From Candidatus Berkelbacteria bacterium Licking1014_7 (lineage in GTDB: Bacteria > Patescibacteriota > UBA1384 > GWA2-35-9 > CG2-30-39-44): a stretch of DNA of 64,000 bases. Below the pieces are notes generated by a model, which saw only the letters and a list, made by a program, of their open reading frames with translations, had not been told where the DNA came from and made no database searches. Where the stretch lies: contig VMGK01000005.1 in assembly GCA_007376535.1 (NCBI GenBank), forward strand, positions 2,085-66,084, given 5' to 3'. Numbering within the stretch: the first letter of the stretch is position 1; the number at the start of each line of letters is the position of its first letter. Both the position numbers and the translations under genes were made by a program. Below, one piece after another: positions 24,013-52,461 of this stretch.

Positions 24013-24084
<72 letters not shown>

Positions 24085-29424: not shown

Positions 29425-31862
29425 ACAATTCGTTTGAGAATTTTATTCATAAAATAAAAAGGCGAACTTATTTATCGTTATTTTTGTCGGTTTTGGTGGT
29501 GGTTGGTTTTGGCGCGGGATTGATTTTTTGGTCTAAAAATGTTTCACGCGGGGCGACTACTTTAAGTGGAACTATCAATGGCTTACGGACAATTAGCGGA
29601 GACGCGGTGATCAAGACCAACCAAACAGTCACTCACGATCAGGGAAATACTACCGGAGGAACAGGATTGGGAGTGAATGTGAGTGGCACTTTAACCTTGG
29701 AAGCCGGCGCCAAAATTGATGTGAGCGGGAAGGGATATAAGGGGGGATATATTTTTTTTAGCATGAATAATATAGGTGGTTATTATTATACAGCTTTATT
29801 TCCGGCTAAGGGAAGCAAGGATGGCAACGCTCCTCAACAGCAAAATCAAGCTGGTGCCGGCGGAGACTGGGAAAATGGCGGGGCAGGCGGCGGCACAGGA
29901 TATAGAACGGCAAATAGACTGGGCGTTGGCGGCGGCGGCGGCGGCGCGTTTGGCTATGGCTCAGGCGGAAAAACCAACCATTCTTCGGCAAGCCCTGGAT
30001 GTTATGGCGGCGGCGGCGCGGGCTGGAAAGGCAAGGGCGGGGCAGGCGTTTGTTCTGGATCGGCGGTTAACGGTGCAGTAAGCGCCAGCATAAATTTTTC
30101 TAATGACAGTTGGTATAATAACGAGATTCTTTTTGGCGCTGGCGGCGCCAGCGGATTTACCATTACGCAGGATAACTCGGAGGGTGATGGCGGCAACAGT
30201 GAATGCGTCAAAGGCGGCAATGGCGGAGGGGCGGTAAAAATAAAAGCCAAAAAATTAAAAATTGAATCCGGGGCAAGCATATCGGCGGCAGGAAAATCGG
30301 GCGGAAAAATGTGCGATCTGGCTTATAGAGTAAAGTGGTTAACTTTTGGACAATTTACTTTGGGAGCGGCTGGGGGAGGCGGAACAATTTATATTGAGGT
30401 TGACGAATTGGAATTGCCTAGCGGTAATGATTATAATTTTGATGTTTCAGGCGGCGATGGTTGGGGGGCGCTGAGCGGGTCGATGTGGGCATCTTCCGGA
30501 GCAGGAGGCGGAGGGATAGTTGTAATTAGAATCGCAGGGGGAGGAAAAATAAAAATCGGGAATAATTATGTAGATAACTTTGCGACGGTTTACGCCAGAG
30601 CAGATTCCAACAAAGGCATGCTTCGCAATATCATAAACGATGTTTATATTTTAACCCAGAAAATACCTGATAGTGCTTGGGGGGGAGACGGCAAAGAAAT
30701 TTTTGCCGGCAATCCGACCATTCCCGGTGGTTCCACCACCTGCGACACATCAAAAATTAAATTGACTGATCCGTCGTTTTCCAGCCAACCGGCGGCGAAT
30801 TCTCATTACCAGCGCGGTGATACTTTTTCCTATAAGGCGCAATATATTAGTCAAGACAGCGGTTCAAATTGTTCTGGCAAGTATCAATTATATTTCCAGA
30901 CCGCTTTATCAAATGATTTAGAATTTATTGGTGGCAGTAAATTGACTCCCGGAAATTTAGATCCAACAATAGGTGGCGGTTTATTTTCAACTCAACATTG
31001 GGAAGTAAATTCAGCCGGTTCTTACACTGGTGATATTAAGATAAAAATAAAAGATAATGCTTGCAATCAGGCAGGCGGCGGCGTTGAGAACAAAATTCAA
31101 ATTTATCAAAAATACGATAATGGTGTGCTGATGGCGCCATCATCAGGAAATCCAGTTTACTCTAATGCGAATATAATTGTTGATTGTCCGGGCGTGGCGA
31201 TTTCCGGCAATGTTGGCGCAAGCAGTATAACTACGCCCGATCTAAAAATTATCGGTAATTCAGTGGTGGCGATTACGGGTTCCTCGTCAGCCACGCTTGA
31301 TTCACAAGTAGTAAATTTATCTGGTTATACCCATTCAATCAATTTTTCCGACATAAATACAAATTTTGAAGCGCTAAAAACCCGGCGGGCAATTAAGCCG
31401 AATCCTTGGACAAATAATTTTAATTTGAATAAGTACAATAAACCCGAAGGTGGAGTGTGGAAAGAACATCCTACCCCTATGAATAGAACTTTTCTGCAAG
31501 GGTCGCGAGGCACGATATTTCATACTGGCGATTTGACAATAGATGGAATTTCTTGGCAAGGCGCGACGGCTGGTGTTTTGGGCATCGTGGTGAAAGATGG
31601 TAATGTGATGATCAAAGATTTAAATTTAAAAAATGTGGCGATTTACGCGTACGACACCGGTGGCGCGGAAGACGGAAAAATCACTTTTGGCACGGGCGCA
31701 ACGGACGAAACATTAGACATGACCGGTTCGTTTGTCGCTAAAAGCATTGAAATTAAAAGTAAGAAGGGTAATATTAAACATTCGGACGGATTAGATAAAA
31801 ATCCTCCGCCCGGATTTTCTAACTTGCAGTCGCAAATAAAAATTTTAGAAAAAGCGCGGTAG
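29415..31862 (+). CDS. Large glycine-rich secreted/surface protein (N-terminal signal anchor, predicted β-helix/adhesin-like)
   Basis: TM segment LSLFLSVLVVVGFGAGLIFW followed by long GGxGGxG tracts and NxxG repeats. Confidence 0.55.
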   Translation: MGSYNSFENFIHKIKRRTYLSLFLSVLVVVGFGAGLIFWSKNVSRGATTLSGTINGLRTISGDAVIKTNQTVTHDQGNTTGGTGLGVNVSGTLTLEAGAKIDVSGKGYKGGYIFFSMNNIGGYYYTALFPAKGSKDGNAPQQQNQAGAGGDWENGGAGGGTGYRTANRLGVGGGGGGAFGYGSGGKTNHSSASPGCYGGGGAGWKGKGGAGVCSGSAVNGAVSASINFSNDSWYNNEILFGAGGASGFTITQDNSEGDGGNSECVKGGNGGGAVKIKAKKLKIESGASISAAGKSGGKMCDLAYRVKWLTFGQFTLGAAGGGGTIYIEVDELELPSGNDYNFDVSGGDGWGALSGSMWASSGAGGGGIVVIRIAGGGKIKIGNNYVDNFATVYARADSNKGMLRNIINDVYILTQKIPDSAWGGDGKEIFAGNPTIPGGSTTCDTSKIKLTDPSFSSQPAANSHYQRGDTFSYKAQYISQDSGSNCSGKYQLYFQTALSNDLEFIGGSKLTPGNLDPTIGGGLFSTQHWEVNSAGSYTGDIKIKIKDNACNQAGGGVENKIQIYQKYDNGVLMAPSSGNPVYSNANIIVDCPGVAISGNVGASSITTPDLKIIGNSVVAITGSSSATLDSQVVNLSGYTHSINFSDINTNFEALKTRRAIKPNPWTNNFNLNKYNKPEGGVWKEHPTPMNRTFLQGSRGTIFHTGDLTIDGISWQGATAGVLGIVVKDGNVMIKDLNLKNVAIYAYDTGGAEDGKITFGTGATDETLDMTGSFVAKSIEIKSKKGNIKHSDGLDKNPPPGFSNLQSQIKILEKAR

Positions 31863-32121: not shown

Positions 32122-32685
32122 ATGGATCAAATAATCAGACCGCAAAATAGCGAGCGACCGGTAAGCTCGGCAGAAATTAAGAATACAATTCGCCTAAAAA
32201 ATCTGGCGACGGTTTTTGGTATTATTTCAATTTCCGTAATTATTTTATCGGCGCTTTCGTTCTTTATTGTCTGGCAAAAAAACAGCCAAATTTCATCAAT
32301 TCAAGATACCATCGATACCAAAAATCAGGGCTTGGACGTCTCGTATAAAACCATTATTTCTCAGCAGGAAACCCTCAAAAAACAAATTGCGGTTTTATCT
32401 GAGCAGGATACATCGTCAATTGATTACACCCAAGAATTGTGGGAAGAATTGTCTAAATCAGCAGTTAAAAATGTTCGATTGGTCGGTCTCACATTTGACA
32501 ATAAAACCATTTCTTTAGAAGGGCAAGCGGGAAGTTTTTCTGACATCGCGCGCCAGTTGGTGGCGTGGCGCCAGGCGACTAATTTTTCCAATGTGGAACT
32601 GGCATCTATCACTACTGCGGATAATGGACAAAAACAATTTGGCGCCCAGTTAAGCTTTAAGGTCACCCAAAAATCAAACGACTAA
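32122..32685 (+). CDS. pilN: PilN-like type IV pilus assembly protein (bitopic, coiled coil)
   Basis: Single TM after about 30 residues, coiled coil, position upstream of a PilO-like gene and pilB. Confidence 0.45.
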   Translation: MDQIIRPQNSERPVSSAEIKNTIRLKNLATVFGIISISVIILSALSFFIVWQKNSQISSIQDTIDTKNQGLDVSYKTIISQQETLKKQIAVLSEQDTSSIDYTQELWEELSKSAVKNVRLVGLTFDNKTISLEGQAGSFSDIARQLVAWRQATNFSNVELASITTADNGQKQFGAQLSFKVTQKSND

Positions 32686-32697: not shown

Positions 32698-33351
32698 ATG
32701 ACCAGCGCGTACGAACAAAATCGTCAAAATTCGTCTTTAATTTTTCTTGAGGTGATTATTATAATCGCCGGATTGTATTTTGGCGTGTGGTGGCAGATGA
32801 ATAAAAACCGCGTCTTATCGCAAAATTTAAGCAGTAAACAGCAGGAATTCGCGATAGTAAAAGACAAAGAGGCGAAATTAGAAACATTAAAGCGGGAATT
32901 TTCCACGCGCAAATCAGAACTGCAAAATTTTAATATCGCGGCGCCTGAGATGTCAGAAATTCCCGAAGCGCTGATGATGATTGAGGCGATTGTGAGTCGC
33001 TCTGGCGCTGATTTGACGAATTTAACTCCCCAGAAACCCACTGGCGGCCAGGTTGAAATTGATTTGTGTCTGGCGTCAAATTATGAGCAGATGAAAACAT
33101 TTTTTACTATTTTGAAAAATAATTTAAGACCAGTGTCAGTTGATTCAATTAAGGTTTTAGCCAGTCAAGATGCCAGCGCCGCGCAAGCCAAATCGCTGTC
33201 TGTGTCAGTAAAATTAAAAATGCCTTATATGGTCAAAAATAACGACAAGACCTCTGATGGTTCAAGTAATAACCCGAGCGATAACTTAAGTAATAATCCC
33301 GGCGCCGGTCCAAGCGACGGGCAAACCATAAATAACACACAAAACGAATGA
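32698..33351 (+). CDS. pilO: PilO-like type IV pilus assembly protein
   Basis: N-terminal TM, coiled coil, position in the pilus operon. Confidence 0.45.
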   Translation: MTSAYEQNRQNSSLIFLEVIIIIAGLYFGVWWQMNKNRVLSQNLSSKQQEFAIVKDKEAKLETLKREFSTRKSELQNFNIAAPEMSEIPEALMMIEAIVSRSGADLTNLTPQKPTGGQVEIDLCLASNYEQMKTFFTILKNNLRPVSVDSIKVLASQDASAAQAKSLSVSVKLKMPYMVKNNDKTSDGSSNNPSDNLSNNPGAGPSDGQTINNTQNE

Positions 33352-33861: not shown

Positions 33862-36093
33862 ATGGTTAATATTATTAAGTCACGCGACAAGAGAGATATT
33901 TTGGATGTCTTGCGCTCTAAAAATATTATTGATGAGTTAACCTACAATTTTATTAGCAAAAACTTTAGCACTAATGAAACGCGCATTCAGGCGCTGGAAA
34001 AAAAGAATATTGTTTCGCAGGAGGATTTATCCAAAGCCGCGGCGGAAATTTTTAATCTTCCGTTTGTCCATATTCAGGGAAAAAAGTTGGATTTTGAGGT
34101 ATTGAATTTAATTCCGTTTGAAATTTGTCAAAAATATAAAATTGTTTGTCTTGAAAAAAAGGGCAATGCCTATCAAATCGCTGTTGCCAGACCGTATCGT
34201 TTGGGCGGCAAAAAATCAGGACTATTGCACAACATTGAAAAAGAAAGATCAGTGGAGTTTCATTTGTCTGCCAGCACTGAGCCAGATGTTGATTGGGCTT
34301 TAAAGATTTATGAAAATTTTTTGTCTGAGCGGGCGGAAAAAAATACTCAGACCAACCTACCGTCCGCTCGGACTGATAAAGTGAAAATTTCTAATTTGCC
34401 TAGGGCTAAATTAGACGGACGATTTGATTTATTGGAAACAATCAGAAAAATTCCGCTGGAAATTATCAGACGTTATAAAATCGCGCTTTTTGAAATTTCA
34501 GATGAAAATATTTTTAAGATCGCCATGCTGGATTCGTTTGATCCGCGCGCCAGAGAAATTATCAATTTCATCAGTCAAAAAAACGGGGTGAAAGTTGAGC
34601 AGTATCAAATTGAGTCAAGGGATTTGGATTGGGTTTTGCAAAATTACAATTCTGCCGCGGCCGTTCAGCCAAGCGCGTCTAAAAACATTGAATCAGAAAA
34701 ATTAGCGCCGGATCAAGGCGCGCCCGACTCATCATCGTCAAAGGAAGTGATTGAAAAAAACGGTATGTTCACTATTCCTGAGGAAGCGATTGCCAAGCCC
34801 GGTTTATCCGGCGGCGAGGTGGACTTGGCTCAGGCAGACAAAACGGGCGCGATCAATCAAGATGAGATTGAAACGGATTTAGATACTTTTCTGGGGAAAC
34901 TGGTTACTAATGCCAAAGAATTGACGCAGATTATTGTGGAAGGTTTTGTGCCTAAAATGGTGGCGGGAATTTTGTCTTTGGGTATTAGTTTGCGCGCCTC
35001 TGATGTTCATCTGGAAGCCACCAGAAAGGGTTTGCGTCTAAGATATCGGGTTGATGGCGATTTGTTGGATTTTATTTATATGCCGATTGCTTTGCATCCG
35101 CCGATTATTTCCAGAATAAAAATTTTATCCGGTCTCAAAATTGATGAGCAGAGAATTCCCCAAGACGGCCGGTATAATGCCAAAGTCCAAAATCACGAAA
35201 TTGATGTTCGGGTTTCGTCATATCCGACAATTCATGGCGAAAAAATCGCCATGCGTCTTTTAGATAAGACCGCCAGCCAGTACAGTTTAGAGGATTTGGG
35301 GTTGACAGGCGCGCCGCTGGAAAAAATTAATCAAGAGATTATCAAGCCCTGGGGAGTGGTGATCATTACCGGTCCGACTGGTTCAGGTAAAAGCACGACT
35401 TTATACGCGATATTGAATGCAATTTCAAGTCCCAAAATCAATATCGTCACTTTGGAAGATCCGGTTGAGTATGATATTCCCGGGGTAAATCAAGCGCAAA
35501 TTAAGCCCAAAATCGGTTTTTCTTTTGCCGAAGGGCTAAGATCGATTTTGCGTCAGGATCCCAATGTGATAATGGTGGGCGAGGTGCGGGATTCTGAAAC
35601 AGCCAATCTGGTCACGCATGCGGCTTTAACCGGTCATTTGGTGCTTACCACTTTGCATACCAATGACGCGTCGTCCGCCCTGCCGCGATTAACCAATATG
35701 AAGGTTGAGCCGTATCTGATTACCAGCGCGATCAATGTAATTATTGCCCAGCGACTGATTAGAAAATTATGTCAGAAATGCAAACAGCCAATTAAAGTTC
35801 CCGCGCCGGTCCTAGAGTCAGAAGGGGTAAAAGACGTTAACGAGATGAAATTTTTTGGTCCGGGCAAAGGTTGCGGTGAATGCCGCAATGGTTATAAAGG
35901 CAGGATTGGAATTTTTGAAATTTTGGTGATGACTGACGCGATTGAGAAATTGGCGATAAATCACGCCCCGGTGTCGGAAATTTTGAAGCAGGCGATACAA
36001 GACGGAATGGTATCGTTAAAAGAAGACGGGATTGCCAAAGCCAAGCAGGGGATGGTGTCTTTGTCTGATATTTTGCAAGCAGTGAATGAGTGA
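33862..36093 (+). CDS. pilB: Type IV pilus assembly ATPase PilB (GspE family)
   Basis: GPTGSGKSTT Walker A, C-terminal tetracysteine CQKC...CGEC, N-terminal GSPII_E domains. Confidence 0.9.
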   Translation: MVNIIKSRDKRDILDVLRSKNIIDELTYNFISKNFSTNETRIQALEKKNIVSQEDLSKAAAEIFNLPFVHIQGKKLDFEVLNLIPFEICQKYKIVCLEKKGNAYQIAVARPYRLGGKKSGLLHNIEKERSVEFHLSASTEPDVDWALKIYENFLSERAEKNTQTNLPSARTDKVKISNLPRAKLDGRFDLLETIRKIPLEIIRRYKIALFEISDENIFKIAMLDSFDPRAREIINFISQKNGVKVEQYQIESRDLDWVLQNYNSAAAVQPSASKNIESEKLAPDQGAPDSSSSKEVIEKNGMFTIPEEAIAKPGLSGGEVDLAQADKTGAINQDEIETDLDTFLGKLVTNAKELTQIIVEGFVPKMVAGILSLGISLRASDVHLEATRKGLRLRYRVDGDLLDFIYMPIALHPPIISRIKILSGLKIDEQRIPQDGRYNAKVQNHEIDVRVSSYPTIHGEKIAMRLLDKTASQYSLEDLGLTGAPLEKINQEIIKPWGVVIITGPTGSGKSTTLYAILNAISSPKINIVTLEDPVEYDIPGVNQAQIKPKIGFSFAEGLRSILRQDPNVIMVGEVRDSETANLVTHAALTGHLVLTTLHTNDASSALPRLTNMKVEPYLITSAINVIIAQRLIRKLCQKCKQPIKVPAPVLESEGVKDVNEMKFFGPGKGCGECRNGYKGRIGIFEILVMTDAIEKLAINHAPVSEILKQAIQDGMVSLKEDGIAKAKQGMVSLSDILQAVNE

Positions 36094-36272
36094 TAGAAAT
36101 TGAAAATTGAAAATTGATGTGGAATGTTTGAAAATTGTGTTATTGAAAATTGATTGAAAATTGAAAATTGAAAATTGAAAATTTCTATATAGATAGTTTT
36201 AAGTTTTACGCTGTGGCTTGGATATTTTACATTTTACTTTTCAGATATAAAATATGTTATAATGAATTCATT

Positions 36273-37340
36273 ATGCAGATAATTAATGAAAAATTAGTTC
36301 AGTTTATTGATGAGGCGTTGAGATTTCAGGCATCGGATATTTTACTGATGACGGGCGTTTTCCCCAGTATTCGGATAAATGGCAATCTGCGCGCCATCTC
36401 AAACACCACTGCGCTTGCTCAAGGCGAGATGGACGATATTTTGAAAAGTATTTTATCTGATGAGACCTATCAGAAGTTTTTGAAAGACAAAGAAGCTGAT
36501 TTTTCATTTTCTCATCCGAAGGTGCGATTTCGGGGCAATGCCTATATGCAACGGGGAAAACCGGCGGTCTCTTTGCGTATTATTCCCCGGCAGATTCCTA
36601 ATTTTCAACAACTCGGCTTGCCGCCGATTGTTGAGAAAATCGCTTCGCACTCGCAGGGTTTTGTGTTAGTGACCGGTCCGACCGGGCATGGAAAGTCAAC
36701 CACTTTGGCTTCAATTATTGAGCATATTAACCAAAATCAAGCCAGTCATATTATCACGATTGAGGATCCAGTTGAATTTGAATTCGTTAATCAAAAAAGT
36801 ATTATTTCCCAGAGGCAAGTGGGGGTTGATACCGAAAGTTTTTCCCGGGCGTTAAAATCAGTGCTGCGCGAAGATCCCAATGTGATTTTAATCGGCGAGA
36901 TGCGCGATTTAGAATCAGTCAAATCAGCGCTTACCATAGCGGAAACCGGGCATTTGGTCTTGTCCACACTCCACACCAACAGCGCCAGTCAGTCAATTGA
37001 TAGAATAATTGATATTTTTCCGTCAGGCGAGCAACAGCAGGTTCGCCAGCAGTTAGCTTCTACCTTACTGGGTGTTTTTTCTCAACGTCTCTTGCCGCGC
37101 GCCAGTGGCAAAGGCAGGATTTTAGCCAGTGAGGTTTTAATCACAAATTCCGCGACAAGGAGTTTGATTCGGGAAGGCAAAGTTCATCAAATAGACAATG
37201 TCATATCCACTTCTGCGGCAGAGGGGATGATAAATTTGGACAAGGTTTTGGCAGAATTGGTTTCGCAAGGGGAAATTACTTTGGAGACCGCCCTGTCGTG
37301 GGCGGTTGACGCCAACACAGTCAAGCAATTAGTTTATTAG
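36273..37340 (+). CDS. pilT: Type IV pilus retraction ATPase PilT
   Basis: GPTGHGKSTT, Walker B IGEMRD, AHLV-type C-terminus. Start at MQIINEKL. Confidence 0.9.
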   Translation: MQIINEKLVQFIDEALRFQASDILLMTGVFPSIRINGNLRAISNTTALAQGEMDDILKSILSDETYQKFLKDKEADFSFSHPKVRFRGNAYMQRGKPAVSLRIIPRQIPNFQQLGLPPIVEKIASHSQGFVLVTGPTGHGKSTTLASIIEHINQNQASHIITIEDPVEFEFVNQKSIISQRQVGVDTESFSRALKSVLREDPNVILIGEMRDLESVKSALTIAETGHLVLSTLHTNSASQSIDRIIDIFPSGEQQQVRQQLASTLLGVFSQRLLPRASGKGRILASEVLITNSATRSLIREGKVHQIDNVISTSAAEGMINLDKVLAELVSQGEITLETALSWAVDANTVKQLVY

Positions 37341-37388: not shown

Positions 37389-38447
37389 ATGAAGAAAAAA
37401 GATTTTATTTTACTTAAAAAGGTTTCAACGGAAGAAAAAGCGTTTTTTTCCAAGCAATTAGCCGTAATGATCGGCGCTGGTTTGCAATTGGCAGGCGCGG
37501 TTAATATCTTAAAAAATCAGACCAGAAATCAATATTTTAAGCAGGTTTTAACCAAAATTTACGATGATTTGGAGCAAGGCAAGAAATTTTCCGAGGCGCT
37601 GGCAAATTATCCCAATGTTTTCAATCGCGTCTACATAAACATTGTATTTTCCGGTGAAAATTCTGGTAAATTAGACAAAGTGCTGGCAGAGTTAGGCGAT
37701 CAATTAACGCAAGAAAATGATTTTACTTCCCGTCTGCGCGGCGCAATGATATATCCGATGATTATTTTGATGGCGTTGATTGGGGTGGCGATTTTTACAT
37801 CAGTTAAACTCATTCCAAGTTTACAGCAAATGTTTTCTGAGGCAAAATCCGAATTGCCGTGGACAACGAAAATTGTATTTGGGTTTTCAAATTTTTTGAT
37901 TCATAGTTGGCTGTGGGTAATTTTGATAATTGTGGCGGGAGTGGTTTTGGTTATGTATTTTTTGCGCACCGCGCCCGGAGAAATGTTGCTTCACCAAATT
38001 CTGCTGAAAGAGCCGTTTGGTCTATTTAAAAAAATTTATCTCTTGCGTTTTACCCGTACGCTCGGATCTTTGCTTTCTTCCGGCGTGCCGATTATTGACG
38101 CGTTGAATATCACTTCCGAAGTGGTGGGCAATGATGTTTATCGCGAGGAATTGCAATTTTTTGCCAATGAACTTGAAAGAGGCGCTCCCTTGTCTGTGCC
38201 GGTCTCGCGCAGCAAATTGTTTCCGTATTTTATTTCGCAAATGATTATTGTGGGCGAGAAGACCGGGCAGACCGATAAAATTTTAGTTAATTTAGCCGAA
38301 AATTTTTACAAAGAAACCACTTATCAGATTGATAATTTTGCTAAGACCTTTGAACCGGTTATAATATTAATAATTGGAATGGGTGTGGCGCTGTTGGTTT
38401 TCGCGGTGATTATGCCGATTTACCAATTCGCCCAATTTGTGGGATAA
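37389..38447 (+). CDS. pilC: Type IV pilus platform protein PilC (GspF family)
   Basis: Duplicated T2SSF domains with three TM segments. Confidence 0.85.
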   Translation: MKKKDFILLKKVSTEEKAFFSKQLAVMIGAGLQLAGAVNILKNQTRNQYFKQVLTKIYDDLEQGKKFSEALANYPNVFNRVYINIVFSGENSGKLDKVLAELGDQLTQENDFTSRLRGAMIYPMIILMALIGVAIFTSVKLIPSLQQMFSEAKSELPWTTKIVFGFSNFLIHSWLWVILIIVAGVVLVMYFLRTAPGEMLLHQILLKEPFGLFKKIYLLRFTRTLGSLLSSGVPIIDALNITSEVVGNDVYREELQFFANELERGAPLSVPVSRSKLFPYFISQMIIVGEKTGQTDKILVNLAENFYKETTYQIDNFAKTFEPVIILIIGMGVALLVFAVIMPIYQFAQFVG

Positions 38448-38730
38448 TAGTTTAAAGTGAAATTTTCAATTTTCAATTTTCAATTTTCAATGAATTCTCA
38501 ATGTTCAGATTGAATGAATTAAATCAAACAGCCCCGAAGATAAATTTCAAAGTCCAAATTTCAAATATCAAAACATTAAAAAGATTAATGAAACCCCCGA
38601 CATTCTAACTTTTAATCCGCCAGTGGGCGGATGGCGGACATTCTTAAATCTAACATCTTAAATTTTAAATCTGTAAAACTTTTACTTTTTGCTGTTTGCA
38701 TTTTGGATTTTGACATTTACTCAAGGGATT

Positions 38731-38767
38731 CCTTCAAAATATAGTATATATTAAAATATAAAGTAAA
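38731..38767 (+). promoter_or_regulatory. Promoter-like 37-bp repeat CCTTCAAAATATAGTATATATTAAAATATAAAGTAAA upstream of the 841-aa gene
   Basis: Near-identical copy at 41432-41469, upstream of pilA. Contains TATAAT-like hexamers. Confidence 0.45.
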
Positions 38768-38815: not shown

Positions 38816-41341
38816 ATGAAAAAGATAAAGTTAGGCAAAATTAGAAAGTTCTTTTCGGAGTGGTCGCGCAAGAAAGCAATACTATTTGCGGGCGGTGTCG
38901 CGCTCATTATTCTGGCTGGCGCAGCCGGTTATGTGGTCTATAAGCAAAGGGCCGGCGCGGATGTGCTTAAGCAATTTGAAGATGCGAAAATAAATATTGA
39001 AGCCTCGGCTGATTATTTCCCGATATTTAATCCCCCAATAGTTTCCATAAAACCAAATGCTCCGGCTGAAGTTAACACTGATGTGTATATAAAAGGAGGT
39101 CAGAAGGTTGCCGACCTTAATGCGCTCACATTCTCATGGGAAGAAACTTCTGGCGCTGAATTGTTAACTGGAAAAGATTTTGGAAAAACCCTTGATATCA
39201 CCTCCACTGGCGATGGAAAAATAAAAATTTCAGTCAAAGATTCGCTTAAAAACAGCATTAAGGGAAGAATATACACCTTTATTAAAGTAACAATCGCCAA
39301 ATCAAACACAACGGCTAAAACCCAAATCACCGAATTGCCAGTTATTATCAATCCTACAACACCTGCCTGGAATCAATTTGAGATTACTGTCAGATCCAGT
39401 GACGGCGGCATCACCGCTTACAAGGCCTGGGATACTGACGGCAAATTAATTCCATTGAATAAGCCGCCGGTCACGAATGATTATGCTAATTCTAGCGTTG
39501 GGGGGTGGAGATACGCTGATTATTATATTCTCAGATATAAATTTTTTTCTCCTGAATATGGAGATATTATTACTCCGTTTACTGAAATAAGATACTGTTT
39601 CGGCTTTAATTGGTGTGGTCGACCATGGCAATTTTCTGATGGCGAAAATGGACTAACCACGACAATACCCGACTATGGTCACGCAATAAATAATAACTAC
39701 TTGAATGGAATATTTACTACACCAATGTCAGCTTTTATAGTAACCGGCTTCGGATCGTTTCAATCAGGCTATATATCAGGTGGATGGTACCCTATACTTC
39801 GTAAAACGATCAAAATAGCGCCTGATTCCATAGAGTGGACGGTAAATAGTGATAAAATAAAAATTGCCAAAGGAGATAAATCACCCATTGTTTATCTATA
39901 TAATCTTGTCTCCGATAAACCAGATGATTATAAAATTAAACTTAATGCCAAAATTGATATAGGCGGAAAAAAAATTCTTCTTCAATCATCTGATTTCAGA
40001 TACAGTGGTACCTATACCTCTTTCCAAATATTTTCTCCCTCCGCCGCATCTTCCACACCCACCACCACCCCCACCACCAGCACCGTCACTTCGGCTGAAG
40101 AAATCAAAGCCCGCGACACCCAAAGAAAAGCTGACATAACCTCTATCCAGCAAGCATTGGAAAAATATTATCAAGCCAAGGGAACTTATCCGGATGCCAC
40201 AGGAGCCGCAGCGCCCAATGGTTCGTGGACTAACAGCGCCGATGATAGTTGGGATAAATTGACTGACGAGTTGAAACCCTATTTGTCCAATCTTCCCGAA
40301 GATCCGTCCAATACCGCCAATACCAGCAATGCCAATTGGACCGGTGTAGGCGAAGGAGATGCCTATAGTTACTCATATTTTTCAAAAGGTAATGGCAAAG
40401 ATAGTACCTGCCAATGGTATATGTTGGTTTATAGAATGGAAGACAAAGCCAACTCAGCCGGCATAACAAAAGGAGCAACCGCTTGCGATGCTAAAAAATA
40501 TAATTATGTTGGCAAAGACAGTTCGGTTGTGACAGTTGGCAATATGATTAAAAAATCTACCTCCACCACCACAACTCCGACTACCACTCCAACTGCTACT
40601 CCTGATCCTAAAATAGACCAGCAACGTCTCAAAGACATAGAAACCATTAAATCAGCCCTTGAGAAATACAAAACCGCCAAAGGGAGTTATCCGAGTACAA
40701 AAGGAGCTTCAAAACCGAATGGCAGCTGGTCAAGCAGCAACGATGACAGCTGGGCAAAGTTGGAAAAAGAACTTAAGCCCTATCTTGCGGCTGGAGTATT
40801 GCCCAAAGACCCGGTCAATACCAGTGGCGGTTGGGCGTTTTGGGGCAACACCTACACATACAGCTATTTCTCCGAGGGTTACGGCAAATCGTCTTCCTGC
40901 CAATGGTATATGCTGGTTTATCGGCTTGACGACGTTAAACTCAAAACCAGTCCGGGAGTAAAAGCGTGCAGTGGAACAAATTTCCAATACGGCAATGGAG
41001 CGATTACCGAGGGCAAAGTTGTCAACATAACTTCAACGACCACCACTCCGACCGTTAAAATCAACCAGGCCAACTTAACTCAATATACAACAGGAACATG
41101 GATTAGAAAAACCTATTACAAACTTGAAGCCAAGTGGACTGGCAGTGATAAAGAAGATGGAACCAATCTGACTTACCGCTATAAAGTAGATAATGGCAAA
41201 TGGAGCGCTTGGTCAAAAACCACATCTGCCACTATTAAAGCACTGAATGGCGTCAAACACTCTCTTACCGTAGAAGTCAAAGACAGCCAAGGGGCTGTCG
41301 GACAGGCAACTGCTTCCGCTTCATCTAAGGATTTTGACTAA
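38816..41341 (+). CDS. Large (841 aa) membrane-anchored protein with two tandem pilin/pseudopilin-like globular domains and Thr/Pro linkers
   Basis: Two repeats of RKADITSIQQALEKYYQAKGTYP ... CQWYMLVYR, matching the post-helix region of the pilA gene here. No prepilin leader. Confidence 0.6.
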   Translation: MKKIKLGKIRKFFSEWSRKKAILFAGGVALIILAGAAGYVVYKQRAGADVLKQFEDAKINIEASADYFPIFNPPIVSIKPNAPAEVNTDVYIKGGQKVADLNALTFSWEETSGAELLTGKDFGKTLDITSTGDGKIKISVKDSLKNSIKGRIYTFIKVTIAKSNTTAKTQITELPVIINPTTPAWNQFEITVRSSDGGITAYKAWDTDGKLIPLNKPPVTNDYANSSVGGWRYADYYILRYKFFSPEYGDIITPFTEIRYCFGFNWCGRPWQFSDGENGLTTTIPDYGHAINNNYLNGIFTTPMSAFIVTGFGSFQSGYISGGWYPILRKTIKIAPDSIEWTVNSDKIKIAKGDKSPIVYLYNLVSDKPDDYKIKLNAKIDIGGKKILLQSSDFRYSGTYTSFQIFSPSAASSTPTTTPTTSTVTSAEEIKARDTQRKADITSIQQALEKYYQAKGTYPDATGAAAPNGSWTNSADDSWDKLTDELKPYLSNLPEDPSNTANTSNANWTGVGEGDAYSYSYFSKGNGKDSTCQWYMLVYRMEDKANSAGITKGATACDAKKYNYVGKDSSVVTVGNMIKKSTSTTTTPTTTPTATPDPKIDQQRLKDIETIKSALEKYKTAKGSYPSTKGASKPNGSWSSSNDDSWAKLEKELKPYLAAGVLPKDPVNTSGGWAFWGNTYTYSYFSEGYGKSSSCQWYMLVYRLDDVKLKTSPGVKACSGTNFQYGNGAITEGKVVNITSTTTTPTVKINQANLTQYTTGTWIRKTYYKLEAKWTGSDKEDGTNLTYRYKVDNGKWSAWSKTTSATIKALNGVKHSLTVEVKDSQGAVGQATASASSKDFD

Positions 41342-41431
41342 TTTTAGAATAGTCCTTGATGGCACATTGGCATTTTCATTCTCTGTTATTCTGAGCCCCG
41401 CTATCTAACGGGATAAACTCCGCCGAAGGAT

Positions 41432-41469
41432 CCTTCCAAAATATAGTATATATTAAAATATAAAGTAAA
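41432..41469 (+). promoter_or_regulatory. Second copy of the promoter-like repeat, upstream of pilA
   Basis: See 38731-38767. Confidence 0.45.
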
Positions 41470-41741
41470 AATAATTATCCCCCGTCATTCAATCTCTTGC
41501 AATATTCTGACCCGTCTTGCCGACGAGGCAGGTTGCAGGTATTTGCAAGTAGATTTTCCGCCAGAGGCGCCCGCCTGCCGGACGGGCAGGGATCTGCCTT
41601 TGGCACGACATTTCGGGGGACTTTCTGAACTTGCTTTCTGCTGCGCCCTACCGAAGCACGCACTGTGAGTACACTATGTAATAGGTTTCACAGTAAGTGC
41701 GAAGGAGGGTTGGGAAACGCAATTCAGGAGCGGGAGAAAAT

Positions 41742-42185
41742 ATGTTAGAAAAAGCAAAAAGGGAAGTAAAAAGAGGATTTTCGCTCATTGAGCTTTTGGT
41801 CGTGATTGCCGTCATCGGCATTTTAGCCGGGATTTTGCTGATTGGCTTTAACAGCGCGCGTATCAAAGCGCGCGACGCCGACAGGAAAAGCGAGTTGGTG
41901 CAACTTAAAACATTGGTAGATATTTATATGACCGATAATACCAATGCGCCCGCCGGCACCGACATCAATGTTTCAGCGATAAACAATGATAATCCTGTGG
42001 GTGTATTTCCGGATTATAAAGCCGGTTTGGCAACTGGTCCCAACGGAACTGAAGATGAGTATAAATATACTGCCAGCGGGACCGATTTTACTCTTGGCGC
42101 AAAACTTGAGATTGCTCCAAGCAGTACGCCTAAACCATGCCCCACCGCTTTTGGCGCAACTTATAATTACTGCCTCGGCAATTAA
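41742..42185 (+). CDS. pilA: Type IV major pilin
   Basis: Class III leader MLEKAKREVKRG|FSLIELLVVIAVIGILAGI (G-1, F+1, E+5). Confidence 0.8.
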   Translation: MLEKAKREVKRGFSLIELLVVIAVIGILAGILLIGFNSARIKARDADRKSELVQLKTLVDIYMTDNTNAPAGTDINVSAINNDNPVGVFPDYKAGLATGPNGTEDEYKYTASGTDFTLGAKLEIAPSSTPKPCPTAFGATYNYCLGN

Positions 42186-42944
42186 TTGATGTTTGCAGAT
42201 TTAATCATAATTTTTATTTTTGGCTTAGGGCTGGGGTCGTTTGCCGGGGTGATTATTTGTCGCAGAAAAACCCCTTTTCTGATAGTTGCCAAACCCAGCC
42301 ACTGCGATTATTGTAAGCGCAAACTGGGATTTTTGGATTTAATCCCAGTGGTAAGTTTTGTCTTGCAAAAAGGAAAATGCCATTATTGTTGCAAAAAGAT
42401 CAGTTGGTTTTATCCGGGCGTTGAAATTTTATCTGGTATGGCTTTTGCCATAAATTGGTATTTTTTCAAATCGCAAAATCAAGATATCTCGCATTTGGTT
42501 TTGTCTAATGCGCTGATTTTTATTTTAATCATTATTGCGTTTATTGATTTTAAGCAGATGATTGTGCCTGATTCGTTAGTGCTGATTATTTTGTTGATCG
42601 CGCTTGTCAAAATGTTTTTGGGAAAGACCTACCTGGCAGGTTTTGAGGGATTGGCGCTGGCAGGCGGTTTTTTAGCAGTATTGGCTATCGCTGGCAGGGG
42701 CAATTGGATGGGTTGGGGCGATGTGAAATTAGCCGGCGCGCTCGGCATATTTTTGGGATTTTCTGGTTCGCTGGCAATGATTTTTAACGCCTTTATCATC
42801 GGCGCTTTAGTGTCAGTATTTTTATTGATAATCAAAGATAAAAAACTCAAAGATCATATTCCTTTTGCTCCTTTTATTGTGATCGGCGCTTTTTTGGCGC
42901 TATGGTTAGACCAGATAATATCAAATTATGTTTTATGGTTTTAA
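42186..42944 (+). CDS. pilD: Prepilin peptidase PilD (A24 family)
   Basis: N-terminal CDYC...CHYC zinc motif and conserved Asp-containing TM helices. Confidence 0.85.
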   Translation: MMFADLIIIFIFGLGLGSFAGVIICRRKTPFLIVAKPSHCDYCKRKLGFLDLIPVVSFVLQKGKCHYCCKKISWFYPGVEILSGMAFAINWYFFKSQNQDISHLVLSNALIFILIIIAFIDFKQMIVPDSLVLIILLIALVKMFLGKTYLAGFEGLALAGGFLAVLAIAGRGNWMGWGDVKLAGALGIFLGFSGSLAMIFNAFIIGALVSVFLLIIKDKKLKDHIPFAPFIVIGAFLALWLDQIISNYVLWF

Positions 42945-43437
42945 GAATGAGAAAGGTTTGTCTCTAATTGAGTTGGTTATTTCTATTTCAATCATCAGTA
43001 TTTTAACAGTGGCGGGCGTGATTTCTTTGAGCAAGACCAAGACATATCAAAATGTGGATATTGCCACAGGTGAATTGAAAGTCACGATTATAAAAGCCAA
43101 AAATTATGCGCAAAATCCGCCGGAAAAATACCAAGGATTGGATTATAAACAATATGGCGTAAAGATTGACAAAACAAATAATAAATATTGGTTAGTGGCT
43201 AAAAAAAGCGATGGCGGCAACACAGATTTAATAGAATATAATTTGCCAGATAAAGTTATTTTTGGCAACATAAATTTGAAAAAAAACACCGCTGTGCTTT
43301 CCGAAATTATTTTTGATATTGAAAGCCGAGCCAAAATTACTAACTTAGGTGAAGACGGGACCATTGAGATAAAAAATAATGTAGACACAAAGACCATAAT
43401 TATAAAATATCCGTATGGATCAGTTGAAGCGCGGTAA
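42928..43437 (+). CDS. Minor pilin / pseudopilin
   Basis: Leader ...NEKG|LSLIELVISISI. Confidence 0.6.
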   Translation: MFYGFKNEKGLSLIELVISISIISILTVAGVISLSKTKTYQNVDIATGELKVTIIKAKNYAQNPPEKYQGLDYKQYGVKIDKTNNKYWLVAKKSDGGNTDLIEYNLPDKVIFGNINLKKNTAVLSEIIFDIESRAKITNLGEDGTIEIKNNVDTKTIIIKYPYGSVEAR

Positions 43438-43837
43438 AAAATGGGGTTTTTCGCTGATTGAAGTGGTCATTGCCACCGGAATTTTAGCGATGAGCGTGTC
43501 GTCAATTATGTCATTGGCAATTTATACGCAAAAAAACACTCAATTTTTGTTAGAAAAGACCTACGCGACCATTCAAGCGTCAAATGGAATTGAGATGGTT
43601 CGGGTTCAGCGCGATCAGAATGTTAGTGATTCAAATTCAGCCACCGATTGGAATAACGGTTCTAATGACACAGCCAATTTTTCAAGCGATTCGTTTAATT
43701 TTTCAGGCAAAACATTTACCCGAACGATTATTTTTAAGACAGATGGAAAAATTACCAGCGCGGTCGCTTGGGGCGCTGGCGGTAGTAATAAAATTACTCT
43801 TGTTGCTCAATTAACTGATTGGAAATTTGAAAGATGA
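43415..43837 (+). CDS. Minor pilin / pseudopilin
   Basis: Leader ...KKWG|FSLIEVVIATGI. Confidence 0.65.
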   Translation: MDQLKRGKKWGFSLIEVVIATGILAMSVSSIMSLAIYTQKNTQFLLEKTYATIQASNGIEMVRVQRDQNVSDSNSATDWNNGSNDTANFSSDSFNFSGKTFTRTIIFKTDGKITSAVAWGAGGSNKITLVAQLTDWKFER

Positions 43838-44304
43838 AAAACACTAATCGTAAAACCGGATTTAGTTTGATTGAAATTGTGATTGCCACTGGTATTTTTG
43901 CTTTTGCCTTGGTCGCGGGTTTGTCGTCCTACCAAAGTTTTAATCGGACCTATAAAGCCACTCAGGCGAAAAGAGAAGCGACCCAGACCCTGCAATTTAT
44001 TTACGAAACCATTTCTCGCGAGGTCTGGTCTGCGGATAAAATTGTATTTGATGTTGCTAATACTAAAAAAGCCACGATCGGCAGTGTTGTTTTGGAGTAT
44101 AAAAATAATGAAATTCAAATAGGAGCCGTACGGCTAAATGATTCGGCAAAAGTTAAAATTGATGATTTTACTTTGTGTCCAGATAAAAATAGCGTAAGAA
44201 TCGACGACTGCACAACGGATAGAAATTTGGTGGTTCAATTTCAAATGGATTTTTCAGGCCGGCAAGAAACCATAAAATTTGTTAATACTTTGCGAAAATT
44301 ATGA
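43834..44304 (+). CDS. Minor pilin / pseudopilin
   Basis: Leader ...RKTG|FSLIEIVIATGI. Confidence 0.65.
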   Translation: MKNTNRKTGFSLIEIVIATGIFAFALVAGLSSYQSFNRTYKATQAKREATQTLQFIYETISREVWSADKIVFDVANTKKATIGSVVLEYKNNEIQIGAVRLNDSAKVKIDDFTLCPDKNSVRIDDCTTDRNLVVQFQMDFSGRQETIKFVNTLRKL

Positions 44305-45062
44305 CATTTAAGAAAATTAAATCAGGAAAGTCGCAATCAGGCAGCGCTTTGATGACGGTTTTGGTGGTGGTGTCAATAATGACCATCGTTTCGCTTTCTG
44401 GCTCAAAAATTTTAATGATGCAGTTTGAAAATATTCGCAATTTTGCCTCGTCGCGCGCCGCGTTTTATCTGGCAGAATCAGGCATAGAGCAAGGTCTTTA
44501 CGATTTTAGAAGAGATCGTCGGGAAGAGAAGAGTGATCAAAAGATTTCTTTGGGGGCGATTGATGGCAAGAATTTTGATTTTAATTATTCGTCAATTTTT
44601 TGGGTGAATGAAGTTGCAGATGTGAATGTGGGTCAAGATAATGTTTGGGATCAGGAAGTAAGTACCGGAGAATTACAAAATTTGCAATATAAATGGGCTT
44701 GGTTGGCAGGTGTCAATAATGATAACCGTCGGGCGCAGATTTTACATTATACAGATAGCGGAGAAGCAATTTCCGGCGCGGTGGTGGTGGCAGCTCCGGC
44801 GCCGTCTGCTTTTCAATCTATTCCTTTTGATACTCAAACCAAAAAATTTCGCTTTCTAATGTTTGGGGCAGGGATAAAAGATTTTAACTTAAAGTGTAGC
44901 GTTACAACATCAAAGTGTTTGGCTGATACACAAAATACCATTACCAGTAAGGCGTCTTATGGCGGGATTTCGCGAAAATTAGAAGTAAAAGTTGATCGCC
45001 AGACCGGCGCGTTAATAAGTTTGTTTGACTATACTTTGTATAGTGTTGGCGAAATTAAATAA
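44301..45062 (+). CDS. PilX-like minor pilin / pilus assembly protein
   Basis: N-terminal SGSALMTVLVVVSIMTIV helix typical of the PilX N-domain. Confidence 0.45.
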   Translation: MTFKKIKSGKSQSGSALMTVLVVVSIMTIVSLSGSKILMMQFENIRNFASSRAAFYLAESGIEQGLYDFRRDRREEKSDQKISLGAIDGKNFDFNYSSIFWVNEVADVNVGQDNVWDQEVSTGELQNLQYKWAWLAGVNNDNRRAQILHYTDSGEAISGAVVVAAPAPSAFQSIPFDTQTKKFRFLMFGAGIKDFNLKCSVTTSKCLADTQNTITSKASYGGISRKLEVKVDRQTGALISLFDYTLYSVGEIK

Positions 45063-45994: not shown

Positions 45995-46097
45995 ACTCTT
46001 CAGCCAGAGGCTGATCCGCCTTTGGCGGACAATGTTTCAATGTTTATTGCATTAAATCAAAAATCAAACAGCAAAAAGCAAAAACAAATATCAAAAT

Positions 46098-46195: not shown

Positions 46196-46402
46196 TATAG
46201 ATTTTCCGCCAGAGGCGGATCTGCCTTTGGCATGACACTTTGACGGGCAGGCATTTTGATTTATCATTTTTGATATTTGATTTATTATTGTGTTATTAGA
46301 AAATATTATACGAAATTACGAAAATTAAAATAATTTTAACTTTGGGTTGTCATTTTGCATTTTGAGATTTGCATTTTGCATTTGACGACCGAAGGGAGGA
46401 AC

Positions 46403-49846: not shown

Positions 49847-49980
49847 TCTCAAATCTCAAAATTCAAAATGACAATGTAAAATTCAAAATGATTTTGCATT
49901 TTGGATTATATTAAGCGATTTTTTCCCGCACTGCGATACGGGCGGGAATGCCAAGGCGGGGGAGTGTTAACAAAATTAAG

Positions 49981-52461
49981 ATGATTTTTATAATAATTTT
50001 CGGGATATTGATCTTGGTCTTTGGTATAGGACTGATAATTTTTAGTTTGCAAAAAGAAGCGGCGCGCAAAAAACGGATTTTATCAACAGTTACTTTGCAA
50101 ATTACTGTTCCCAAAGAATCAACCCGCCGCGACGATCAAGACACTAGCAACGAACCAAAGGATTTTCGCGAGGCGATCGCGCCGACCGATCAATTTTTTT
50201 CTTCGCTTTCCTCGCTTTTTAACCGCGACTTTCGCCGCCAAATACTATCTGATCAAGATTATTTATCATTTGAAATTGTCTCGTATAAAAATGAAATTTC
50301 TTTTTACATTGCCTGCCCTAAGGATTTGATGAGTTTGGTTGAAAAACAGGTCAATTCGTATTATCCTTATGCTAATATTGAGCGGGTGCGCGGTCATAAT
50401 ATTTTTGCCATTGGCAATGGCAAGGTTTCAGCCAGTAACATTAAACTAGTCAAAAGATTTATTTTCCCAATAAAAACCTATCGCTATTTGGATTCTGATC
50501 CATTGAACAATTTGACTAACGCGCTTTCTAAAATGGGACAAAACGCGTCCGGCGCAATTCAGTTTTTGATTAAACCGATTTCAAATAACTGGCGGATGGC
50601 GCCAACGTCTGCCGCCAAGCAAGTGATGGAAGGAAAAAATACTTATATGTATTCAAAATGGTGGCAAAAGGCGCTGAGTAATTTTTGGGAAGGAACTTCA
50701 AAAAGCGCTTCGCGCGCCGCCACACTGCCCGGTCAAACCATGCAAACCGACAGCCAAGGCAATCAGATGTATCGCCACACCCCGGCGCAGGAAGAATTGA
50801 TGAAAGCGTTTAATGAAAAAGCCGCTAAGCCCGGTTTTGCGGTTGAAGCGCGGGTGGTGGCAGTTGCGCAGGATGAACAATCTGTTAAAATGCTTAAAAA
50901 TAATATTGTGAGCGCCTTTGCTCAATTTAACGCGCCGGCGTGGAATAGTTTCAGAACCTCTTCGGCTGAGCAAAAGCAAATTATTTTGGACTATATTACT
51001 CGTAATTTTAATAAGGGAAATGTGCTCAATTCTGAGGAGGTGGCGTCGCTTTGGCATTTGCCAAATAAATTTATCCAGACGCCGAATATCAAATGGTTGC
51101 AATCGCGCACTTTGCCCGCGCCCACCAATTTGCCAGAACAGGGTGTAGTGATAGGAAAAAGCGTTTATCGCGGCGAGGAAAAGTTGATTCGTTTTAAGGA
51201 CGATGATCGACGCCGTCATTTGTTTATGATTGGTAAAACCGGTGTTGGTAAAACCACTTTATTTGAAAATATGATTATGCAAGACATTTCTCAGGGCAAA
51301 GGGGTTTGTTTTGTTGATCCATTGGGCGATGCGATTGAATCAATTCTGCAAAAAATTCCCACTCATCGCGCCCGCGATGTGATTGTTTTTGATCCGTCTG
51401 ACACTGATTATCCGCTGGGACTTAATTTGCTTAATTGGGAAAAACCAGAAGAAAAGGATTTTTTAGTGTCTGAATGGTTGGAAATTTTCTACAAACTTTT
51501 TGATCCGGGTCGCACTGGTATAGTGGGACCGCAGTTTGAGCATTGGGGGAGAAATGCCGCGCTTTCAGTTATGAGTTTGCCTGAAGGCGGGACTTTGATT
51601 GATATTCCCCGCATGTTCACTGATGATGATTTTCGGGACAGAGTGATTGCGAATGTAAAAGATCCGGTCGTTCTGGCTTTCTGGCAAAAGCAATTAGTGA
51701 AAACCGCTGATTTTCATAAGTCAGAAATGTTTAATTATTTTATTTCTAAATTTGGACGGTTTATGACCAATGATTTGATGCGTAATATTATCGGTCAGGC
51801 GCGATCTACGTTTAATTTTCGACAGGTGATGGATGAGGGGAAGATTTTACTGATTAATTTGTCAAAGGGAAAAATCGGCGAGATGAATTCCAATCTTTTA
51901 GGTATGATTTTAGTGTCAAAAATTCAGGCGGGGGCATTCTCGCGCGCAGACATTAGCGAAGAAAACCGACGGGATTTTTACCTTTATGTTGACGAGTTTC
52001 AAAATTTTACCACTGATACATTTGCGACAATTTTGTCTGAAGCCAGAAAATACCGCTTAAATTTGAATATTACCAATCAGTACATTGCTCAATTAACAGA
52101 GAAAATTCGCGACGCGGTGATTGGCAATGCCGGCACATTGGTGGTCTATCGGATTGGCGCGGCTGACGGTGAATTTATGTCAAAAGAATTTCCCGGGGCA
52201 ACGATTGACGATATGGTTAATTTAGATAGATTTAAGACATATGTTAAATTGTTGATTGATTTGACGCCTTCAAAACCGTTTTCTATGCTGGGCATAAAAA
52301 CGAATTATCCTTCAAATCCACAAATGTCAGAGTGGATAAAACAGAATAGCCGGGCGCTTCACAGCCGGGCAAAGACGCAAGTTGAAAAAGAAATCGGCGG
52401 ACGCGGCGGCTTGACTGCGCCGCCGGCGCCCGAGCCAACCGAGGCGCTTCGCCAAACGTAG
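49981..52461 (+). CDS. Membrane-anchored VirD4/TraG-like (type IV coupling-protein-like, FtsK/HerA superfamily) P-loop ATPase, paralog 1
   Basis: N-terminal TM; Walker A FMIGKTGVGKTT; Walker B FYLYVDEFQNF; ARKYRLNL and TNQYIAQL (Arg-finger and sensor-like). Start could also be 49948. Confidence 0.65.
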   Translation: MIFIIIFGILILVFGIGLIIFSLQKEAARKKRILSTVTLQITVPKESTRRDDQDTSNEPKDFREAIAPTDQFFSSLSSLFNRDFRRQILSDQDYLSFEIVSYKNEISFYIACPKDLMSLVEKQVNSYYPYANIERVRGHNIFAIGNGKVSASNIKLVKRFIFPIKTYRYLDSDPLNNLTNALSKMGQNASGAIQFLIKPISNNWRMAPTSAAKQVMEGKNTYMYSKWWQKALSNFWEGTSKSASRAATLPGQTMQTDSQGNQMYRHTPAQEELMKAFNEKAAKPGFAVEARVVAVAQDEQSVKMLKNNIVSAFAQFNAPAWNSFRTSSAEQKQIILDYITRNFNKGNVLNSEEVASLWHLPNKFIQTPNIKWLQSRTLPAPTNLPEQGVVIGKSVYRGEEKLIRFKDDDRRRHLFMIGKTGVGKTTLFENMIMQDISQGKGVCFVDPLGDAIESILQKIPTHRARDVIVFDPSDTDYPLGLNLLNWEKPEEKDFLVSEWLEIFYKLFDPGRTGIVGPQFEHWGRNAALSVMSLPEGGTLIDIPRMFTDDDFRDRVIANVKDPVVLAFWQKQLVKTADFHKSEMFNYFISKFGRFMTNDLMRNIIGQARSTFNFRQVMDEGKILLINLSKGKIGEMNSNLLGMILVSKIQAGAFSRADISEENRRDFYLYVDEFQNFTTDTFATILSEARKYRLNLNITNQYIAQLTEKIRDAVIGNAGTLVVYRIGAADGEFMSKEFPGATIDDMVNLDRFKTYVKLLIDLTPSKPFSMLGIKTNYPSNPQMSEWIKQNSRALHSRAKTQVEKEIGGRGGLTAPPAPEPTEALRQT

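Follow-up and report, generated by a model that had tools for sequence, protein, structure and literature searches.

The stretch of DNA analyzed here, called the window below, comprises 64,000 nucleotides of contig VMGK01000005.1 of Candidatus Berkelbacteria bacterium Licking1014_7, a metagenome-assembled genome from the candidate phyla radiation (CPR). Inside a type IV pilus (T4P) locus of this window, with pilC on one side and pilA on the other, lies an open reading frame (ORF) on the plus strand (38816 to 41341, stop codon included) that encodes a protein of 841 amino acids (aa). The ORF starts with ATG, has an AAGGAG ribosome-binding site 5' of it, and gives a product 100% identical to a deposited protein of Licking1014_7, named "Type II secretion system protein G" at the source. 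We conclude that it is a real gene and that its product is a modular cell-surface protein, with Sec-dependent export as the predicted route. Two of its modules, D1 and D2, are intact globular domains, or heads, of type IV pilins that lack the segment for processing by the prepilin peptidase PilD and for filament assembly.

The protein opens with a Lys/Arg-rich N region, a hydrophobic segment at aa 19 to 43, and a juxtamembrane motif (aa 1 to 48; 38816 to 38959, plus strand like all the modules that follow), and its N terminus reads MKKIKLGKIRKFFSEWSRKKAILFAGGVALIILAGAAGYVVYKQRAGAD. The hydrophobic segment, a stretch of about 22 residues, is the only one in the protein. The motif behind it, Y-x-x-Y-[KR]-Q-R-[AS]-G-A-D, is common to four large proteins (P0001, P0002, P0082, and P0126), across which it takes the longer form AGG.GY..Y[KR]QR[AS]GAD, and it resembles a signal-peptide or sorting signal peculiar to this lineage. 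Candidatus Berkelbacteria is the annotation given to the P0002 cluster. Residues 1 to 48 may thus be read as a Sec signal anchor or as a long signal peptide that would be cut at an AxA-type site after Ala48. Next comes an orphan N-terminal region (aa 49 to 405; 38960 to 40030), which had no match in Pfam, NCBIfam, or the PDB and no homolog among the visible matches when 1.84 billion representative proteins were searched exhaustively with phmmer. A single-sequence AlphaFold model of aa 44 to 412 had a pLDDT of 31.5 and was unusable, and a word-indexed search with the region returned nothing even at an E value of ≤10, a weak negative in that the source protein was not returned either.

The remainder of the protein alternates between domains and linkers. 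Linker 1 (aa 406 to 428; 40031 to 40099; 74% Thr+Pro+Ser) leads into D1 (aa 429 to 576; 40100 to 40543), which comprises the helix alpha1-C, a beta-sheet, and the pair Cys532-Cys557. Linker 2 (aa 577 to 600; 40544 to 40615; 67% Thr+Pro+Ser) separates it from D2 (aa 601 to 737; 40616 to 41026), with the pair Cys695-Cys718, and linker 3 (aa 738 to 748; 41027 to 41059; 73% Thr+Pro+Ser) joins D2 to a C-terminal Ig-like domain (aa 749 to 841; 41060 to 41338). The Thr/Pro-rich linkers are probably extended. The Ig-like domain matches PKD weakly (E = 0.11), is present in as many as 27 repeats in giant proteins from the phmmer matches, and also ends the Berkelbacteria-type surface proteins P0082 and P0126. 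The C terminus reads ...GQATASASSKDFD, and no hydrophobic segment follows aa 43. A sortase-anchored surface protein of the Gram-positive kind was considered and rejected, there being no C-terminal LPXTG-type motif with a hydrophobic tail.

D1 and D2 are 52% identical to each other (aa 434 to 564 versus 601 to 725; BLASTP E = 5e-36). The phmmer search yielded 892 matches at E ≤ 1e-3 and 148 at E ≤ 1e-10, and among the best 150 there were 117 proteins of 110 to 270 aa that showed 35 to 54% identity to D1 or D2. The canonical prepilin N terminus G-F-T-L-I-E-L-L-V-V-I was present in 99 of these 117, and most of the other 18 were apparently 5'-truncated gene calls that start within the hydrophobic helix. 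The match usually began 30 to 45 residues into these proteins, and later where gene calls have long N-terminal extensions. In an alignment of D2 and D1 with 98 of these pilins (A1), the two domains kept 31 to 33 of the 34 positions in the head with a conservation of 70% or more, namely R, D, ALExY, G.YP, two Trp, LPxDP, Y.Y, C..QWY..VY, and the second Cys among others, so that both cysteines are present. Of the 13 conserved positions in alpha1-N, the hydrophobic segment of about 20 to 25 residues that in pilins stands immediately before alpha1-C, neither domain kept any; all are gaps in A1. D1 starts exactly at the ARD that opens alpha1-C, and the residues that precede the heads are TSTVTSAEE for D1 and TATPDPKI for D2. 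A hidden Markov model (HMM) of the head family covered the full head in both domains, with i-E values of 2.8e-47 on D1 and 1.1e-43 on D2.

The predicted structure agrees with the alignments. An AlphaFold2 model of D2 built on A1 (pLDDT 96.7, pTM 0.91) has an N-terminal helix of 25 residues, a second helix, and a beta-sheet, and the features that define a pilin head were found: an alpha-beta roll, alpha1-C packed on the antiparallel sheet, and a C-terminal disulfide loop. PilE, TcpA, PulG, and PilJ are lower-ranked entries in the list given with the model. A head-only profile built from twelve leaderless domains (A4) finds the GspG, EpsG, and PulG structures by sequence, at E values of 0.004 to 0.24. 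Structure prediction did not draw on a full-length alignment (A2), in which MAFFT had placed every pilin over D1 so that D2 and the C terminus had no coverage. Word-indexed searches found only the protein itself with the full 841 aa as query and nothing with D1 alone, the latter again a weak negative that also missed the source protein.

The name given at the source implies a true pilin or pseudopilin, and one might likewise think of a modular pilin that is polymerized into the fiber. Pfam T2SSG (PF08334) indeed matches the protein in two stretches at E = 1e-7, with 32.4 bits against a gathering cutoff of 21, and the GspG equivalog model TIGR01710 gives a weak match. The TIGR01710 score, however, is 28 bits against a cutoff of 88.85 (E = 1.9e-6) and covers model positions 31 to 103 only. 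A regular-expression search found no prepilin motif anywhere in the 841 aa, and N_methyl and TIGR02532, which matched pilA and the minor pilins in the same scans, did not match it; there is no Gly-1/Glu+5 and no alpha1-N. The first head begins 428 residues after the N terminus, and the N-terminal pilin module of a modular pilin is replaced by a Sec-type N terminus and then 380 non-pilin residues before the first head. Type IV pilins require alpha1-N with its Glu5 for extraction from the membrane and for packing in the fiber core. On this knowledge of T4P assembly, heads without a class III signal peptide, Glu5, and alpha1-N should not be cleaved by PilD, and heads without alpha1-N should be neither extracted by PilB/PilC nor packed into a filament core, so that the protein would not be a pilus subunit. 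The identification as GspG or any true pilin is thus contradicted by the sequence, and we give it almost no credence.

These results bear out much of an earlier note on this DNA, made from the sequence alone. It had described two tandem pilin-type globular domains, which are the two 52% identical domains that align with the heads of true prepilins, and the absence of a prepilin leader, seen here with the regular expression, N_methyl, and TIGR02532 alike. It had also described an ordinary N-terminal signal or anchor and Thr/Pro linkers, which correspond to the hydrophobic segment at aa 19 to 43 and to the three linkers with 67 to 74% Thr+Pro+Ser. Neither of the two outcomes that it had named as refuting was seen: the internal repeats align with prepilin heads, and the model of D2 has the pilin fold.

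The heads are not those of the neighboring pilin. The gene pilA (41742 to 42185, plus strand) encodes a 147-aa prepilin whose N terminus is MLEKAKREVKRG followed by FSLIELLVV, and the only part of it that resembles D1 and D2 is the alpha1-C helix motif KARDxxRK (BLASTP E = 0.003). D1 and D2 are assigned by their sequences to another pilin family and are not copies of the PilA head, because the head-family HMM covers only positions 4 to 74 of PilA, which are the helix, and the full head of D1 and D2. A longer signature had been thought to be common to the repeats and PilA; its helix motif holds, but ALExY..G.YP and CQWYMLVYR are found in D1 and D2 and are absent from PilA. By the same HMM, no other ORF of the window carries a D-type head.

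These comparisons also bear on silent pilin cassettes. In Neisseria, the pilS loci hold tandem pilin copies, truncated at the 5' end and without a leader, close to the pilin gene that is expressed. D1 and D2 might likewise be silent donors for antigenic variation within an ORF that is long only by accident, since they are two 5'-truncated pilin copies in tandem just upstream of an expressed pilin gene, in a segment flanked by direct repeats. The pilS copies, however, are untranslated DNA donors homologous to pilE, whereas D1 and D2 are translated in one ORF; blastn of the 841-aa gene against pilA found only 30 nucleotides (nt) at 83% identity (E = 0.17), and the head family differs. The copies are in frame within a complete ORF of 2.5 kb, which comes with a ribosome-binding site, a signal sequence, and linkers of its own; the fold-critical residues are conserved in both, and the same architecture and leader occur in independent assemblies. 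We therefore rejected a pilS-like cassette, which we find scarcely credible.

A promoter-like repeat of 42 nt stands before both the 841-aa gene (copy 1, 38726 to 38767) and pilA (copy 2, 41428 to 41469, about 270 nt before its start codon), in both cases on the plus strand. The two copies are exact over a 33-nt core (38735 to 38767 and 41437 to 41469) and 93% identical over the 42 nt, in keeping with the duplicated promoter-like element that the earlier note had reported. No such match is expected in shuffled sequences, and no third copy was found in the window even with 3 mismatches or as half-elements. Read by eye, copy 1 contains a putative -35 hexamer, TTCAAA (38733 to 38738), and a putative -10 hexamer, TATAAA (38757 to 38762), separated by an 18-nt spacer; copy 2 has TCCAAA in place of TTCAAA. 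A sigma-70-type promoter is plausible, and it would leave the 841-aa gene with a 5' untranslated region of about 45 nt and pilA with one of about 270 nt. From the identity of the element we infer that the two genes may be co-regulated. The repeats are direct and flank the 841-aa gene, so recombination between them would delete it precisely.

The intergenic region between pilC and the 841-aa gene contains further elements. A dispersed repeat of about 129 nt follows pilC (38587 to 38713) and recurs in inverted orientation at 12880 to 13001 (74% identity, E = 1e-18), where it lies between convergent genes. It contains a CCGCC...GGCGG hairpin and is probably a terminator-type element; its position after pilC suggests that transcription is terminated there and that the 841-aa gene begins its own transcript. 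Tandem AATTTTC repeats, about 4 to 6 units, lie directly 3' of the pilC stop codon (38461 to 38506), and shorter A/T-rich pieces of this intergenic region occur at other spacers, at 6938, 47886, 56865, and 63009. The leader of pilA (41470 to 41741, plus strand) is G+C-rich and strongly structured over its roughly 270 nt, with a folding energy of -116 kcal/mol (z = -6.8 versus shuffles). Rfam has no family in the upstream region of either gene. Within the pilA leader lies an enlarged version of a hairpin element, GCCAGAGGC..GATC..GCCTTTGGC, that resembles a repetitive extragenic palindrome (REP) and is found twice in the rplJ-rplL spacer (46003 to 46026 and 46208 to 46231). The leader structure may reflect such REP-like repeats, and a riboswitch, which had been considered, was dropped on these grounds.

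The other genes of the locus are those of a T4P system. Upstream of the 841-aa gene are those for PilN (32122 to 32685), PilO (32698 to 33351), PilB (33862 to 36093), PilT (36168 to 37340), and PilC (37389 to 38447). The prepilin gene pilA is followed by those for the prepilin peptidase PilD (42186 to 42944), three N_methyl minor pilins (42928 to 44304), and a PilX_N protein (44301 to 45062), after which come an L10 leader, rplJ, and rplL. No PilM was recognized among the ORFs scanned from 25 to 34 kb. Directly upstream of pilN and pilO, in the place expected for pilM, is a Gly-rich protein of 860 aa (29280 to 31862) with a hydrophobic segment at the N terminus and without a match in Pfam. A PilC query against genome contigs, made for syntenic Berkelbacteria loci, found only a locus from Planctomycetota with 26% identity. 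Farther afield, on the downstream side of the pilus locus, are the genes for two large coupling-protein ATPases of the VirD4/TraG/TrwB-like kind (49948 to 52461 and 53172 to 56096), which may belong to a CPR type IV secretion system. On the upstream side are genes for an N6/N4 DNA methylase (25007 to 26011) and for an AbiEii-type toxin nucleotidyltransferase (28380 to 29051), as well as four tRNA genes at 23541 to 24624 and a fifth at 18723 to 18795.

Leaderless D-type heads were also found in other large surface proteins. P0002 and its orthologs on L001, L005, and L007 have the N-terminal signal of the 841-aa protein, then another middle region with a FlgD_ig domain, and then D. The number of D copies in this gene is one on L001 and L007 and at least three, near-identical and in tandem, on L005 (12179 to 13444). 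The difference could be true variation with domain exchange, or it could come from the collapse of repeats during assembly. On two of the contigs, L001 and L007, the single D is followed by a disrupted second copy, and many members of the P0002 cluster are partial, their contigs ending within these genes. The variable middle region of P0002 (8224 to 11004 on L001) contains an HExxH motif (LIHEISHAW), which suggests a metalloprotease-like payload set between the shared signal and the pilin head. A second paralog, on L006 and L008, joins D to an Ig-like domain and CarboxypepD_reg; the D of L006 is almost identical to that of the P0002-type gene. Two D domains each, together with thrombospondin type 1 (TSP1) and Laminin_G_3, are found in P0005 (2,848 aa) and P0007 (1,638 aa), while P0012 combines GDYXXLXY with D and P0117 combines Ig repeats with D.

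A neighbor-joining tree of heads, which carries no support values, places the leaderless ones in at least four separate groups among true pilins, and one of these groups holds all of the Berkelbacteria-type leaderless heads, D1 and D2 included. Pilus genes were present in none of the seven neighborhoods of other leaderless-head proteins examined, which included rpsB-tsf-pyrH-frr, a fusA/tuf interval, a position after secA...ftsEX, a DUF2157 operon, and tpiA. Three true D-family pilins that were looked up are likewise orphan genes. Near one D-family pilin gene, in another CPR genome, there is a PMT-family protein O-mannosyltransferase (L009, 6790 to 8073), an enzyme that might have a bearing on how Thr/Ser-rich linkers or pilins are glycosylated. 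Because leaderless heads recur in varied surface proteins outside pilus loci, the pilin head appears from its domain contexts to be a shuffled extracellular module, and the linkage to T4P genes in the window is the exception among the cases seen.

We hold with moderate confidence that the 841-aa protein is a Sec-exported, non-polymerizing surface protein that displays tandem pilin heads for adhesion or recognition and is produced together with the pilus. Among the functions offered beforehand, a non-polymerizing pilin-domain adhesin fits best because the leaderless head is found in other surface proteins with adhesion-type domains and outside pilus loci; for a tip or cap protein and for a decoy, which are less likely, there was neither support nor refutation. 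Adhesion or recognition is suggested because the partner domains of the relatives are TSP1, LamG, and Ig-like. The heads would be carried between Thr/Pro stalks, flanked by the orphan N-terminal region and the C-terminal Ig-like domain, and their binding surfaces would be shown on or near the cell body. The identical promoter-like element would allow the protein to be made together with PilA.

Several points weigh against this interpretation. The site between pilC and pilA and the shared element point to a link between the gene and the pilus that a generic adhesin leaves unexplained. The assignment of the repeat as a promoter is a consensus-like reading, and the 42-nt direct repeats could instead be the scar of an insertion or duplication that set the gene before pilA; promoter or scar, the two genes lie under the same sequence. 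The N terminus may be either anchoring or cleaved, in which case the protein would be released. Finally, the N-terminal region of about 360 aa, for which there is neither a homolog nor a usable model, may hold the actual activity.

A rival explanation is a pilus-associated accessory protein, such as a tip, cap, or docking factor. Through head-to-head contacts, it would attach by its heads to the shaft or to the tip complex of minor pilins and so place the orphan N-terminal region at the pilus, as PilY1-type adhesins ride on minor pilins. The gene lies within the T4P locus between pilC and pilA, with pilD, the three minor pilins, and the PilX_N protein to follow, and the identical promoter-like element precedes it and pilA. 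A CPR precedent is PilX2 of the saccharibacterium TM7x, a large protein of the T4P locus that has no predicted PilD signal and is needed for host binding (PMC11623550). However, PilX1 and PilX2 of TM7x keep an N-terminal hydrophobic helix with a head (PMC11623550), whereas the 841-aa protein has no alpha1-N helix for insertion into a filament. A Pfam scan found no PilY1/Neisseria_PilC beta-propeller, even at E ≤ 1, and no other tip-adhesin family, and the C terminus is a domain of about 90 aa of the Ig-like-repeat type. The head family differs from that of the local PilA, and all seven of the related leaderless-head proteins examined lie outside pilus loci. We consider an accessory role unlikely.

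A decoy or mimic would also use heads that do not polymerize. Bound or shed, they would absorb phages, antibodies, or competitor receptors that target pili or, in a variant of the idea, serve as a landing pad for the D-type pili of sibling cells. The heads are up to about 50% identical to true pilin heads and yet non-polymerizing, and the tandem copy number runs from one to at least three in close relatives, as is often seen under diversifying pressure. But the window holds no D-type pilin for the heads to mimic, and the difference in copy number is also explicable by assembly collapse of near-identical repeats. A decoy seems to us highly improbable.

A broader form of the adhesin interpretation gives the pilus a part. 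Heads without the polymerization helix may have been captured repeatedly in the CPR as a portable recognition domain that in this organism works with the pilus, an idea that we put forward as a doubtful one. The protein would be the counterpart on the cell body that engages the same ligand after retraction has drawn a partner cell close or, alternatively, would act on pili, or on phages specific to them, as a decoy or as a place to dock. Having the identical promoter would fix its stoichiometry with PilA.

Ultrasmall CPR bacteria are believed to depend centrally on type IV pili for locating host cells and staying attached to them, and their pilin heads are very diverse. The occurrence of leaderless heads within ordinary secreted surface proteins, beside lectin-like and Ig-like modules, would mark the head as a binding or recognition domain that is sufficient in itself. 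Being naturally leaderless, such heads should be soluble and may therefore serve in ligand screens without engineering. The analysis also corrects a recurrent annotation error, by which proteins of this kind are named "type II secretion system protein G". The pilin fold itself is known; what is new is its leaderless, tandem form in a non-pilin context that recurs in CPR surface proteins.

Full-text literature searches on pilin-like domains in Patescibacteria, PF08334, and Berkelbacteria pili found no description of this architecture, and the known systems each resemble it in part. D1 and D2 have the head fold and motifs in common with type IV pilins and GspG (PF08334; PDB 4lw9, 2kep, and 6t8s), from which the 841-aa protein differs in having two tandem heads and no class III signal peptide, Glu5, or alpha1-N. 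PilJ of Clostridioides difficile, with its dual-pilin fold (PDB 4ixj), likewise has two heads per chain (PMC9556784). PilJ, however, has a complete prepilin start, with leader and alpha1-N, and is incorporated into the pilus, whereas both D1 and D2 are without alpha1-N. A head encoded without alpha1-N is reportedly found in the split pilin PilA-N/PilA-C of Geobacter sulfurreducens, a system that Gu et al. are said to have described in 2021. There, the single head PilA-C joins, by non-covalent pairing, a helix-only pilin encoded beside it and enters the filament; the local PilA, by contrast, comes with a head, and a helix-only pilin was not seen. The Pam pilus of CPR bacteria (bioRxiv 10.64898/2026.03.03.709456), with Ig-fold pilins and donor-strand exchange, was considered and is unrelated. 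More generally, a large pilin family and disulfide-forming enzymes are known to be enriched in the CPR (PMC6744442).

A further comparison is with modular pilins, such as PilB and PilC of Streptococcus sanguinis (PMC8179133) and PilX1 and PilX2 of TM7x (PMC11623550), in which an adhesion module is grafted onto an N-terminal pilin module. The 841-aa protein is like them in that pilin modules are joined to other extracellular modules and the gene lies in a T4P locus. In modular pilins, however, the pilin module is N-terminal and has its helix, and the extra module rides on the fiber. The 841-aa protein is the inverse, with pilin heads grafted onto a non-pilin, Sec-type scaffold, and it adds this reverse case to the modular pilin concept.

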